From Oligoflexia bacterium (GTDB lineage: Bacteria; Bdellovibrionota; UBA1018): a stretch of 29,923 nucleotides of DNA. The notes under the pieces are model-generated. The model was not told the DNA's origin, did not search any database, and was given only the letters and a program-made list of their open reading frames with translations. Location: assembly GCA_043757905.1 (NCBI GenBank), contig JAYVOO010000152.1:1-29923 (forward strand), in the 5' to 3' direction. The position numbers were made by a program, and so were the translations under genes. This document shows positions 11,578-28,721 of the stretch, piece by piece. How positions within the stretch are numbered: position 1 is the first letter of the stretch; the number at the start of each line of letters is the position of its first letter.

Positions 11578-11648
11578 TGAAGCGTGACTTAACACACCTT
11601 TCCAAGATTCTCCAACTGGTTCGGCCAAGCCGCAGGTGCGGGAGCCGT

Positions 11649-12263
11649 TCAGACCGCGATCGCGTCTTCCGGGTCATCCACCGCGGTGATCACGTCCGGA
11701 TCTCCGGCCGTGCCGCTGTCACCCGGCTCCGAAAGCCGCATACGGACCCGCCCGCTTCGCACTGGCCCGTAAAACGCGCCCATCGCCGCTCCGTAGAGAA
11801 GGTGGCCCACCAGAAGTACCACCACGGTGTCGGCGCCCATCCCCGAGCCGAAGAACCCGAAGCCGCGATACGTATCGATTTGCATCTGCTCGTGGATCAC
11901 CTGGAAGAAGGGGAAGATCGCTACCGCCGCCAGCACCGTATGGGCGAACCCGAGCAGGATGCCAAGACGCACGCTCGACCTGCGGAACACGAACTCGAAA
12001 CAATAGGCGTAAAAGATCCCGAAGGTTCCACCGACGAAGAAATTCGAGAGGAACCCCGCGGTCCAAGAGTGCGTTCCGTACGGCGTGCCTTTCACCAGCG
12101 AGCCCAGATAAACGAAGAGAGAGAAGGGCGTCGCGCCTACCGCCGCGAAGATGTCGACGAAAAGACCCATAAAGGTCGCGCCGAACGCGCCGGCGAGGAT
12201 CGCCCTCCACCAGTTCATCGGCTGCTCGTTCCGCTCCAGCAAACTGATTTTTCGTCGTGCCAT
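11649..12263 (-). CDS. Multi-pass membrane protein (DUF6789/DUF2938-like pattern); alternative start ATG 12218
   Basis: TM segments AILAGAFGATFM, GGTFGIFYAY, GILLGFAHTV, LLVGHLLYGAAMGAFY. ATG 12263 sits symmetrically relative to the 12274-12302 palindrome. Confidence 0.75.
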   Translation of the reverse strand: MARRKISLLERNEQPMNWWRAILAGAFGATFMGLFVDIFAAVGATPFSLFVYLGSLVKGTPYGTHSWTAGFLSNFFVGGTFGIFYAYCFEFVFRRSSVRLGILLGFAHTVLAAVAIFPFFQVIHEQMQIDTYRGFGFFGSGMGADTVVVLLVGHLLYGAAMGAFYGPVRSGRVRMRLSEPGDSGTAGDPDVITAVDDPEDAIAV

Positions 12264-12273
12264 GTGGACAGGA

Positions 12274-12302
12274 TGTGCAAACGATGGTCCATCGATTGCA
12301 CA
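12274..12302. promoter_or_regulatory. 29-bp imperfect palindrome containing two overlapping divergent sigma54-like promoters
   Basis: TGTGCAA-A-CGATGG-T-CCATCG-A-TTGCACA. Plus strand TGGTCC-N5-TTGCA (12285-12300); minus strand TGGACC-N5-TTGCA (12291-12276). Confidence 0.65.
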
Positions 12303-12312
12303 ACCCTCCTCC

Positions 12313-12795
12313 ATGAAGCGCACCATCAATTGGTTGGACCATGCGACCCGTACCCTTCACTCTAACCACCGGCAAGCCGCGGGATGCGCGGATTACATCT
12401 CCCAGCGCTTGGCGAACCTACTGCTCGAACGCCTCCCCTCGCCGACCGCTCTCGAGCTGATCGAGATCCTCCCGGATTCCGCGCGCGAGATGGTCGACTC
12501 GCTTCGCGCGGCGGCGGACTCGCCCAGCGAGGCAAGCATCGGCTACCAGGACTTTCTCAATCGAACGGCGTTCGCCATCGGCTGCTCCGGCTGTATCTCC
12601 TCGCCCGCGGACAGCCAAAACTTCGAGCCGGAGCTCAATGAGCTTGCGAAGAAGGTGACTGATACCTTCCTGTGGGCGTGCGCACGTGAACTCCCGAACG
12701 AACTCAAATTCCGAATGGCCGAAGGGCTACCACTCGAACTCAAGTCGCGGATGGATCTCTTCGAAGACCCGGGCGAGCGCACGCAAGTCGCCTGA
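12313..12795 (+). CDS. DUF2267-like protein (160 aa)
   Basis: Duplicated helical pattern L.ERL...ALEL...LP / ..EL.......LP.ELK and central YQDFLNRTA, as in DUF2267; start ATG 12313. Confidence 0.6.
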   Translation: MKRTINWLDHATRTLHSNHRQAAGCADYISQRLANLLLERLPSPTALELIEILPDSAREMVDSLRAAADSPSEASIGYQDFLNRTAFAIGCSGCISSPADSQNFEPELNELAKKVTDTFLWACARELPNELKFRMAEGLPLELKSRMDLFEDPGERTQVA

Positions 12796-12810
12796 GTCGC
12801 GAACCCGCCA

Positions 12811-12838
12811 TTGACATCCGGGGCGGCGCGGGCAAATT
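12811..12838 (+). promoter_or_regulatory. Sigma70-like promoter TTGACA-N16-CAAATT, 8 nt before ATG 12847
   Basis: Consensus -35; -10 keeps A2 and T6; no SD. Confidence 0.55.
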
Positions 12839-12846
12839 GAAAAGTT

Positions 12847-14295
12847 ATGCCCGCAGGCCCTCATCCAAACGAGCCGGTTCCGAGCTCGACTCGACTTCTC
12901 GCGCAAGCGAGGTGGCTCATGTATGCAAGCGCCCCCGCCCTGGCAGTCATGGCCCTTTACTCGGGCTGGCGGAACGTCGCGCTCTATGGTGATTGCGCCT
13001 TGGCTTCGCTTGGGTTGCTCGGTCAGGGGTTGATCCCGCTTTACAATCCAGCTCGCGTGACCGGAATCTACATGTTGCAAGCACTGCCCTATAACCTCGT
13101 CAGGCTCGGAATGACCGATTCCGCGGCGATCGTCCACTGGTTCGGAGCGTGGCCGGGACTGATCTCCGCGTTGAGCCTTGCAGTGTATCTCTATTTGGCG
13201 CGCCGGGACTTCCGCTTGCAATGCCTGGGCACGGTGCTGCAACTCACACTCACCCTGATGACCTCCCTGGTGCCGACGGAATCCCAGATGGCGACCGCCA
13301 TCTGGCTGGTCCTCGTCTCGGTGATCTTCGCGCGAGACACGCTGTTTTCGTTTCCGCGCGCGGCGATTCTCCTGCTCGGATCGATCGCCTTCATCAACGT
13401 CTACGAAACCGCCGCAGCATTGGCACCGCTTCTCGCCGTGGGGATCGTTCTTCGTTTAGGACGCGAACCCGATTGGTGCCGATATCGGTTTGCGCCGCTA
13501 GCCGCGCTAATTCCCCTAACTTTTGCTGCAGTCACCGCCGCCCGGGCCATCCACCATCCGGAATCGCCAGCCAACCTGCTCCAGTTCCAGGAGTCGATGT
13601 TCCTAGTTCTGCTTCAGCCCGCGCTCTGGATCAGCCTGGCGCTCTCCGCCGCCGTGCTTTTCGGCGGCAAGCTCCAGGCGAAGTGGCAACCCGATCTGCC
13701 AATATCCACCTGCCTCTTCCTGGCGTGGGCGGTGTTCTGGTTGCTCTCGAGCTCGCTCGGCGTGGAGATCATCCCTCCCCGCGGCCAATACTCGGCGCGC
13801 GTGCTCCAGCTCATTCTTCCCGCCGCGGTGACAAGCGCGCTGATCCTCAGCGGCTCCCGTCGCCTTGCGCCCTTCGCTCGACGTCTTTCTGCGACGCCCT
13901 CTCGCGCGTCCGTCCTCGCTCTGTTGATGCTCCTGTCCCTGAATATCGAGTGGCGAGTGGACGCGCTCCGCATGTGGACGCGGTACCTCGAGCTCATGGC
14001 GGGCTTCATCGGGTCAGGGAGGGGAATCGTCGCCGCCGAAGATACGCCGTTCCCGGACGATAAGATGGCATGGGGCTGGTCGCTACCTACCGAGATGGTC
14101 GTGTTAGCCACCATCAAACGCATACCACTCACCAGCATTGCCCACTTCTCGCACAACGGTGACTACGAGCCGATCTGCGCGCTTCGGCCCGAATCGCTCC
14201 CGCGCTTTGAGAACGGGCCGGAATACCGCCTGATGCCGATCAAGGAACGCCCAATTCGCAAGCGGACCCCGCCGCCGTCGCGCCCTTCGACGTGA
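12847..14295 (+). CDS. Polytopic membrane protein (about 10 TM segments), possibly GT-C glycosyltransferase-like
   Basis: Many hydrophobic segments, loop motifs YGD and NVYET, soluble C-terminal tail. Confidence 0.7.
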   Translation: MPAGPHPNEPVPSSTRLLAQARWLMYASAPALAVMALYSGWRNVALYGDCALASLGLLGQGLIPLYNPARVTGIYMLQALPYNLVRLGMTDSAAIVHWFGAWPGLISALSLAVYLYLARRDFRLQCLGTVLQLTLTLMTSLVPTESQMATAIWLVLVSVIFARDTLFSFPRAAILLLGSIAFINVYETAAALAPLLAVGIVLRLGREPDWCRYRFAPLAALIPLTFAAVTAARAIHHPESPANLLQFQESMFLVLLQPALWISLALSAAVLFGGKLQAKWQPDLPISTCLFLAWAVFWLLSSSLGVEIIPPRGQYSARVLQLILPAAVTSALILSGSRRLAPFARRLSATPSRASVLALLMLLSLNIEWRVDALRMWTRYLELMAGFIGSGRGIVAAEDTPFPDDKMAWGWSLPTEMVVLATIKRIPLTSIAHFSHNGDYEPICALRPESLPRFENGPEYRLMPIKERPIRKRTPPPSRPST

Positions 14296-27887: not shown

Positions 27888-28694
27888 TTACTGCGCCGCG
27901 AGATTCGCGTTCAATGCCTTCGCGCCGGCGGTTGGTTTGGCGCCGGCAAGGAACAACGTATCACTTGGGTGCTGCGCCGCTTCGCCCAGATTGCCGGTCT
28001 TGGCGCCGACTCTGGAGAAGGTGGAAGCGAGATTCCCCGCCGCCAAGCTGGAATCGTACGCCCCGGAGTCTTTGGGTTGGATCTGCTTGAGAGCGAAGTC
28101 GATTTTATTGCGCACATCTTCCTGCATCGCATAAGCGAGAACAGGTCCGTTCGGCGCTCCAGCCGTGGCTAGCAGGACGGAGGCCTTCGCGAGAAGCGCT
28201 CTTCCTGTGACTTCCAGGTACTCATCTGGAAGCTTGGTCGTATTCATCCAGTTGCTCAGCTCCTGCAGACGGTCCGTGAGCTGCACCGTGAGCTCGCGGC
28301 TCTTGGGGAACTCGGACATCAGTTTGCGGATGGTGAGAATGGAGTCGGCGATCTTGTAATTTTCCGGCGTGCTTCCCGCGGAAGTCGCGGACTTGGCCTT
28401 GAGGCCGCCCTTCGTGCGCTCCGCGACCACCGTGAAGACTCCAGGCGCCATCTCGAGCTGGCGGAACACCACCCAGAGAGCGCAAGGCCGAAGCAAAGTC
28501 TTGTTGAACGGATCGTAAGGAGAAGCTTCCGGGCGCTCACACTTGCGGGAGTCGATCAACACGACCGGCGCCTTCGAGCCCGGCTGCGCAGCGGGAAGCG
28601 CACGATCCCCGAAGCTCGCCCACGCGGATCCGCCAGTCGAAGCGAGTAGCAGGACTGCGGCGGCGATGAGGGTGGAGGCAAAACGGGAACGCAT
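27888..28694 (-). CDS. Secreted hypothetical protein (268 aa)
   Basis: Signal peptide MRSRFASTLIAAAVLLLASTGGSAWA; one Cys pair; Ala/Gly-rich tail. Confidence 0.8.
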   Translation of the reverse strand: MRSRFASTLIAAAVLLLASTGGSAWASFGDRALPAAQPGSKAPVVLIDSRKCERPEASPYDPFNKTLLRPCALWVVFRQLEMAPGVFTVVAERTKGGLKAKSATSAGSTPENYKIADSILTIRKLMSEFPKSRELTVQLTDRLQELSNWMNTTKLPDEYLEVTGRALLAKASVLLATAGAPNGPVLAYAMQEDVRNKIDFALKQIQPKDSGAYDSSLAAGNLASTFSRVGAKTGNLGEAAQHPSDTLFLAGAKPTAGAKALNANLAAQ

Positions 28695-28705
28695 ACAGCT
28701 GTTAA

Positions 28706-28721
28706 AGCAAACCCAGTGCCA
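28706..28721 (-). promoter_or_regulatory. Consensus sigma54 promoter TGGCAC-N5-TTGCT
   Basis: Perfect -24/-12 match; 12 nt between the -12 C and ATG 28694. Confidence 0.8.

Follow-up and report, generated by a model that had tools for sequence, protein, structure and literature searches.

Organization of the intergenic element

The stretch of DNA analysed here, referred to as the window, is 29,923 nucleotides (nt) long and corresponds to contig JAYVOO010000152.1 (C152) of an uncultured, predatory-type Oligoflexia bacterium of the Bdellovibrionota, whose metagenome-assembled genome (MAG; GCA_043757905.1, G000 below) is 78% complete. Two genes of this contig, one for a DUF2267-like protein and one for a membrane protein, point away from each other and are separated by a gap of 49 base pairs (bp) that contains a palindrome (Table 1). 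As judged from sequence comparisons, this palindrome probably consists of two sigma-54 (RpoN) promoters in back-to-back orientation with overlapping -24 boxes, which would serve leaderless gene starts in both directions. The DUF2267-like protein matches Pfam DUF2267 with an E value of 2.6e-6, just under the cutoff, and the membrane protein was compared with both Pfam and NCBIfam. Related loci belong to the Bacteriovoracaceae, Bdellovibrionia or Oligoflexia, and DNA of the window was found in sediment metagenomes of one study, where four DNA runs are identical over the palindrome; these runs may be the source of the MAG and are thus not independent.

The palindrome, TGTGCAAACGATGGTCCATCGATTGCACA, is 29 bp long, with 13 of its 14 pairs complementary and the sole mismatched pair at 12281/12295; if two further mismatches are allowed, a repeat search extends the symmetry to 12271-12305 (arms 88%). 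Each strand has an intact TGG and an intact TTGCA, with the canonical spacing of 10 nt between GG and GC, and the -24 boxes of the two strands share 7 bp, read as TGGTCCA on one and TGGACCA on the other. Each start codon is found 25 nt away from the centre and 14 nt past the C of its own -12 element, that is, with 12 nt (N12) between TTGCA and ATG, and the intergenic gap is wholly taken up by the two promoters. No purine-rich Shine-Dalgarno (SD) sequence occurs before either ATG, the preceding 12 nt being caaccctcctcc on the plus strand and catcctgtccac on the minus strand. The coordinates of palindrome, boxes, centre and start codons given in a preliminary description were recovered base for base, as was its remark that both -24 boxes deviate from the TGGCAC consensus: each hexamer has two mismatches, at positions 4 and 5. 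The CC at positions 5-6 of each box is found there because these bases are the GG of the partner site, and position 4 is the central T/A; the overlap therefore forces both boxes away from TGGCAC and makes both promoters weak.

Within the 2.9-Mb genome, there are 11 odd palindromes in which 13 or more of the 14 pairs match, against 0.75 in shuffles; the other ten of the same quality are of unrelated sequence, and several are hairpin-like. The pattern TGTGCAA-N15-TTGCACA has a single occurrence genome-wide, which is this palindrome. Furthermore, no other back-to-back overlapping pair of opposite-strand sigma-54-like sites (at most two mismatches each) was found in the genome.

Table 1. Coordinates of the element and of the two genes that flank it
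Feature	Position in the window	Strand	Remarks
Palindrome, two putative sigma-54 promoters fused back to back	12274..12302		13/14 pairs, centre 12288
Putative sigma-54 promoter of the DUF2267-like gene, TGGTCC-ATCGA-TTGCA	12285..12300	+	TGGTCC 12285-12290, TTGCA 12296-12300; GG 12286-12287, GC 12298-12299; -12 C 12299; ATG 12313
Putative sigma-54 promoter of the membrane-protein gene, TGGACC-ATCGT-TTGCA	12276..12291	-	TGGACC 12291-12286, TTGCA 12280-12276; GG 12290-12289, GC 12278-12277; -12 C 12277; ATG 12263
12-nt CT-rich stretch from -12 element to ATG, without SD	12301..12312	+	predicted start 12311-12313, most likely the A of ATG
12-nt stretch from -12 element to ATG, without SD	12264..12275	-	predicted start 12265-12263
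DUF2267-like gene, 160 amino acids (aa)	12313..12795	+	Pfam DUF2267; N-terminus kept in orthologues
Multi-pass membrane protein of 204 aa, uncharacterised family	11649..12263	-	only faint DUF6789/DUF1440 likeness; M1 invariant

The two predicted promoters in related bacteria

Orthologous loci were collected from genome contigs, where a single-protein query gave 0 loci and an alignment query 9, and from metagenome contigs, which gave 3. None of the collected loci comes from the same genus, and the overlap itself was compared only across genera. For the membrane gene, the set comprised 18 orthologous loci, from MAGs of the family Bacteriovoracaceae and from metagenomes. The motif xGGxxx-N5-TTGC(A) lies directly upstream on the strand of the gene in 16 of these 18, and TTGCA is separated from the ATG by 12-14 nt in 10 of them and by 16-17 nt in two (Table 2). 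The DUF2267-like gene has a sigma-54 promoter of its own in eight lineages, this genome included. These comparisons lend support to the initial proposal that both halves of the palindrome would act as sigma-54 promoters.

Table 2. Predicted sigma-54 promoters of the two genes in this genome and its relatives
Gene	Promoter or distance	Genomes or loci
Membrane gene	TTGCA-ATG 12 nt	this genome, G021, G003
Membrane gene	TTGCA-ATG 13 nt	G016, G081
Membrane gene	TTGCA-ATG 14 nt	G009, G066, G067, G065, G080
Membrane gene	TTGCA-ATG 16-17 nt	L033, G032
Membrane gene	TTGCA-ATG 23-40 nt	G096, G013, G082, G024
DUF2267-like gene	CGGCCC-N5-TTGCT-N14-ATG	G005
DUF2267-like gene	TGGCGC-N5-TTGCA-N13-ATG	G021
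DUF2267-like gene	TGGCTC-N5-TTGCT-N12-ATG	G082
DUF2267-like gene	TGGCTT-N5-TTGCA-N12-ATG	L032 (metagenome locus)
DUF2267-like gene	N11 to a GTG	G013
DUF2267-like gene	with SD leaders	G016/G081 and G080

The nth gene (endonuclease III), the DUF2267-like gene and the membrane-protein gene form a conserved block, within which the orientation of the DUF2267-like gene differs among lineages. In all arrangements, including the tandem one of G016 and G081, each gene retains a promoter of its own. In divergent arrangements, the two promoters always lie near each other: the back-to-back offset between their TGG positions is +19 in G013, +16 in G080, +10 in G021, +5 in G082 and -6 in this genome, the only one of the five compared in which the -24 hexamers overlap. 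These offsets form a series, with the overlap at its compact end. As to the conservation expected earlier for the palindrome and its symmetric start codons, GG-N10-GC and the distance to the ATG are kept among relatives; the palindrome beyond the promoter elements is not.

The start codons on which these distances depend were also compared. M1 of the membrane protein is invariant in eight of eight aligned orthologues, whose N-terminal 15 residues align, and the DUF2267-like orthologues align from residue 1; the predicted start codons at 12263 and 12313 are fixed by these alignments. The alternative start of the membrane protein at 12218, named at the outset as an observation that would contradict the symmetric layout, was ruled out, since this Met is not conserved (it is Ile in most of the eight aligned proteins) and the alignment favours 12263.

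Spacing between promoter and start codon

Start codons of long open reading frames (ORFs) in this genome peak at 14 nt past the -12 C of sigma-54-like sites, with 15 cases in the two-mismatch class against a background of about 3. Over all mismatch classes there are 17 such starts, many of which open signal-peptide proteins. The same spacing was examined in 40 relatives with the pattern TGGCAC-N5-TTGCW-N6..30-ATG. Among the 150 matches listed, a hand count gave 17 for N12, 11 for N16 and 10 for N13, so that N12-13 was the most frequent spacing, the others below 24 being mostly represented by 1-5 matches (7 for N15 and N17, 10 for N20), and a second, SD-led mode was seen at 24-29. Of the N12/13 ATGs that were fetched, 19 of 27 open at least 66 codons, and many of these reading frames have lipoprotein or signal-peptide N-termini. 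By hand sums, 151 genomes of the phylum contain 164 matches at N12-13 and 84 at N21-22, and the window's own order 28 and 6, respectively. The predicted pattern of sigma-54 promoters with leaderless starts is found throughout the Bacteriovoracaceae, and less strongly in the phylum as a whole. The two ATGs of the palindrome thus mirror each other because the usual promoter-to-ATG distance of the family is applied twice.

The base preceding the start codon was considered as well. A pyrimidine stands before the ATG in 11 of the 14 own-genome cases with the 14-nt spacing, and a C in 11 of the 17 N12 cases of the relatives, which fits initiation at the A of ATG. For sigma-54 promoters, CT-rich segments close to the start site have been described (10.1101/086108). 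Leaderless starts of the sigma-70 type are common too, with a peak of TANNNT 6-9 nt before the ATG. The near-leaderless transcripts proposed for both directions are therefore supported, as predictions, by the spacing found in the genome and in its relatives. No paper describing a class of sigma-54-dependent leaderless genes was found in the open-access literature, the coverage of which was incomplete.

Other genes with this spacing were observed. The window itself contains a second leaderless-type sigma-54 gene at 28692-28721 on the minus strand, where the consensus promoter TGGCACTGGGTTTGCT, with TGGCAC at 28721, is followed after 11 nt by an ATG (13 nt past the C) that opens a protein of 268 aa with a signal-peptide-like N-terminus, MRSRFASTLIAAAVLLLAS. 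Further members of the leaderless-spaced class, in which the promoter lies 12-13 nt before the ATG and leaves no room for an SD, are G000:C98:233-263, L172, L177, L185, L191 and L193. In three genera (L174, L182 and L194, from G014, G006 and G035), TGGCAC-N5-TTGCT-N12/13-ATG precedes the gene of a protein of about 100 aa, MSNVV..L.....K.E.ED..Y.A.ILGMDK.ELLEEM..FQ, and both gene and promoter are conserved.

Probable assignment to sigma-54 and alternative readings

The genome encodes the machinery that such promoters would need: rpoN is present, with a DNA-binding domain scoring 218 bits, together with 13 genes for full sigma-54 activators (Sigma54_activat), at least 10 of which have an HTH_8 DNA-binding domain. 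The matrix used to score both sites was derived from 93 sigma-54-like sites of the same genome, which makes the scores partly circular. The plus-strand site reaches 11.5 bits (genome rank 190) and outscores the minus-strand site, at 9.35 bits (rank 393). The TGGTCC box, followed after N12 by an ATG, also heads another gene of this genome, on C261. No sigma-70-type promoter was found on either strand in 12100-12480.

Several observations weigh against two functional sigma-54 promoters. Both sites are weak by score, within the bottom 5-10% of the sites from which the matrix was built. None of the 13 activator genes lies on contig C152, and no convincing activator-binding dyads or repeats were seen in 12040-12540, that is, within 250 bp on each side. 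No RNA run with 11600-13000 was found among the sequencing runs searched, and the transcription starts are predicted. Two of the membrane-gene loci (L032 and G078) have AG for GG together with an SD leader, and the putative sigma-54 control of this gene is not universal. Finally, seven of the nine palindrome positions that are not fixed by the sigma-54 core are also symmetric (binomial estimate, p ~1e-3). This extra symmetry is not required by two independent promoters, and it hints at an inverted-duplication origin, at arm homogenization or at a further, symmetric ligand. It is the comparative evidence, and not the motif score, that decides the matter, and it supports the assignment of both putative promoters to sigma-54.

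One alternative is that only the minus-strand promoter of the membrane gene works, the plus-strand match being a by-product of the symmetry and the DUF2267-like gene being transcribed in some other way. The broader conservation of the minus-strand promoter, at 16 of 18 loci, and the weak scores of both sites speak for it, as do G012, where no sigma-54 site was seen upstream of the DUF2267-like gene, and G024, where the situation is unclear. However, the DUF2267-like orthologues of seven other lineages have sigma-54 promoters of their own, four of them at N12-14 from the ATG, and the sigma-70 search over 12100-12480 left no promoter of that type available to this gene. Moreover, it is the plus-strand site that has the higher score, and its box and spacing recur at C261, so that a plus-strand match without function is improbable.

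A second alternative takes up a caveat of the preliminary description, where an operator of a homodimeric regulator was considered instead of a promoter: such a regulator would control both genes, with the palindrome serving chiefly or also as its operator and the likeness to sigma-54 sites being secondary. The dyad is of the perfect type, with the symmetry beyond the sigma-54 core noted above, and in five orthologous lineages the spacer and -12 region have an inverted-repeat partner upstream (shuffle p <=0.03). Nevertheless, the genome holds no second copy of the palindrome and no pair of its half-sites, and it is not conserved in the relatives, which do keep GG-N10-GC and the distance to the ATG. 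The inverted repeats of the relatives have gaps of 1-38 nt and differing arms, are absent from 10 loci, are not kept within genus g10 and are unlike the site of one dimeric protein; 41 other sigma-54-like sites of the genome lack such repeats. The products of six neighbouring genes, compared with Pfam or NCBIfam, include no DNA-binding regulator domain (BolA, glutaredoxin and DUF2267 were recognized, and three had no match). An operator is thus disfavoured, and quite improbable, the symmetry beyond the promoter elements being neither conserved nor repeated in the genome.

The repeats themselves are lineage-specific, their upstream arm lying 1-38 nt before the -24 box and pairing with the spacer and -12 region (L013, L014, L015, L016 and L033); they look more like recurrent inverted duplication or arm homogenization than like a conserved protein site.

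It is very improbable that the palindrome lacks a regulatory role and came about by chance or by mutation (templated inverted duplication): template switching can produce quasi-palindromes, and a scan of public genomes with TGCAA-N4-TGGNCCA-N4-TTGCA gave at least 119 scattered, chance-like matches in unrelated taxa, but the element is centred exactly between two alignment-verified start codons at the usual promoter-to-ATG distance of the family, both genes carry sigma-54 promoters in relatives, and an ATG at N12 on both sides occurs in none of the at least 119 public matches listed, an absence that is as chance predicts for those matches.

Proposed mode of transcription

With two sigma-54 promoters overlapping in their -24 boxes, the plus-strand promoter would drive the DUF2267-like gene rightwards and the minus-strand promoter the membrane-protein gene leftwards. 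Since each start codon lies 14 nt past its -12 C, the predicted first base of the transcript on both strands is the A of ATG or a base 1-2 nt ahead of it. The resulting mRNAs would be leaderless and would be translated without an SD sequence.

The closed complex of the sigma-54 holoenzyme covers roughly -35 to -5. In the palindrome, a single base pair separates the GG dinucleotides of the two sites, which are on opposite strands; given this geometry and that footprint, two holoenzymes should not fit together, and the element would accommodate only one at any moment. It is thus plausible, from the geometry, that the two closed complexes exclude each other.

Activation would depend on one of the enhancer-binding ATPases of the genome. 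Because the 49-bp gap is filled by the promoters, activator sites, if any, would lie inside the coding regions; the activator may bind within coding sequence, or it may be one that acts independently of DNA. NtrC-type activators work from either side and at a distance. Most likely, one activator would serve both directions, and the two genes would be co-regulated, each activation firing one way or the other. This arrangement is favoured over a switch between two activators because the two genes are a conserved pair. The directional switch originally envisaged, set by whichever enhancer-binding protein fires, found no support, as no activator site was found around the element and no activator gene on the contig. 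Likewise, alternative expression of the two genes agrees less well than co-regulation with a syntenic pair that is conserved and whose members elsewhere stand in tandem or diverge from separate promoters.

A more complete picture can be offered tentatively, as a possibility that is more doubtful than the presence of the two promoters. The element would be a minimal two-way sigma-54 promoter, on which one holoenzyme binds in either orientation over a shared -24 site, and each activation, from sites in the coding sequences, yields one or the other of two leaderless mRNAs but not the two together. At the same time, it would be an extreme member of a class of sigma-54 promoters, as yet undescribed and widespread among the Bdellovibrionota, in which the first transcribed base is the A of ATG.

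The usual picture of a sigma-54 promoter includes an enhancer upstream, looping of the DNA and a long leader. In the present case, two predicted sigma-54 promoters are accommodated within 49 bp; they have the -24 site in common and would lack leaders. This raises the questions of whether two closed complexes can coexist on overlapping -24 boxes or whether the direction is chosen stochastically or by regulation, of where an activator acts if there is no upstream noncoding DNA, and of how sigma-54 transcripts beginning at AUG are translated. Furthermore, in many Bdellovibrionota genes, often for secreted proteins or lipoproteins, 12-13 nt separate a consensus sigma-54 promoter from the ATG. Such starts may be misplaced by gene callers relying on an SD and missed in regulon predictions that look for a leader.

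Neighbouring genes and other symmetric sites

Between the DUF2267-like gene and nth, the window contains a gene for a membrane protein of 482 aa without a family match (12847-14295, plus strand). It is missing at this position in G021, G082 and G005, where nth directly follows the DUF2267-like gene, and therefore is probably a lineage-specific insertion. The bolA and grx genes, which lie downstream of the 204-aa membrane-protein gene here, were found in none of the relative loci compared, within a reach of about 1-1.5 kb on each side. At three loci (L012 of G003, L016 of G032, and L033), a gene for a Fur-family regulator takes the place of the DUF2267-like gene; it is on the same strand as the membrane gene and ends 25-70 nt upstream of the sigma-54 promoter of the latter.

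Elsewhere in the genome, two near-perfect 29-bp palindromes with the common ends CTTTGA...TCAAAG were noted at G000:C83:4788-4816 (CTTTGATATCGCAATTTGCGATATCAAAG) and G000:C340:4689-4717 (CTTTGACATTCCAATTTGGAATTTCAAAG), which may be operators of one regulator. At G000:C215:921-948, two sigma-54-like sites stand face to face on a common palindromic TTGCAA -12 element (GGCAT-N5-TTGCAA-N5-ATGCC), and the minus-strand site of this pair has an ATG 15 nt past its C. At relaxed stringency, nine face-to-face pairs of sigma-54-like sites occur in the genome, largely because TTGCAA is its own reverse complement.

Comparison with known systems

In the open literature, of which the coverage was incomplete, no paper on overlapping -24 boxes of sigma-54 promoters was found, and the element is best compared with three known designs. 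The first is the divergent pair of sigma-54 promoters with a common enhancer region, as in zraP-zraSR of E. coli and Salmonella. The likeness lies in two outward -24/-12 promoters, in neighbouring and functionally linked genes, and probably in one activator. In pairs of the zraP-zraSR type, the promoters are 100-700 bp apart, with the activator sites between them, and the mRNAs have leaders. Here, in contrast, the -24 boxes overlap with nothing between them, the gap measures 49 bp, and leaderless mRNAs are predicted in both directions.

The second design is the bidirectional sigma-70 promoter that results from the symmetry of the -10 element (Warman et al., 10.1101/2020.01.31.928960). In both cases, a core promoter element coincides on opposite strands, the sequence is short and symmetric, and the distance between the starts is fixed. 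However, the shared element is the -24 box of sigma-54 and not the -10 element of sigma-70, and about 50 bp, instead of 18 bp, lie between the predicted starts. Promoters of the Warman type are defined by overlapping sigma-70 -10 elements and by starts 7-25 bp apart, and the element described here is thus an analogue and not a member of that group. Moreover, as the sigma-54 closed complex is stable and needs an ATPase, overlap should give competition, whereas reciprocal stimulation was reported for the sigma-70 type.

The third design, the leaderless mRNA transcribed from a promoter directly against the ORF, is known from actinobacteria and archaea, among others. For Deinococcus-Thermus, such mRNAs have been described (PMC12340547). 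The genes resemble the two divergent genes studied here in having no SD and a fixed distance between promoter and ATG, and in a start codon at the transcription start, as is predicted here; the Deinococcus-Thermus and actinobacterial promoters are of the sigma-70/-10 type, unlike the present ones, in which a sigma-54 -12 box lies 14 nt before the ATG. The feature is real, and it is an unusually compact version of known designs.

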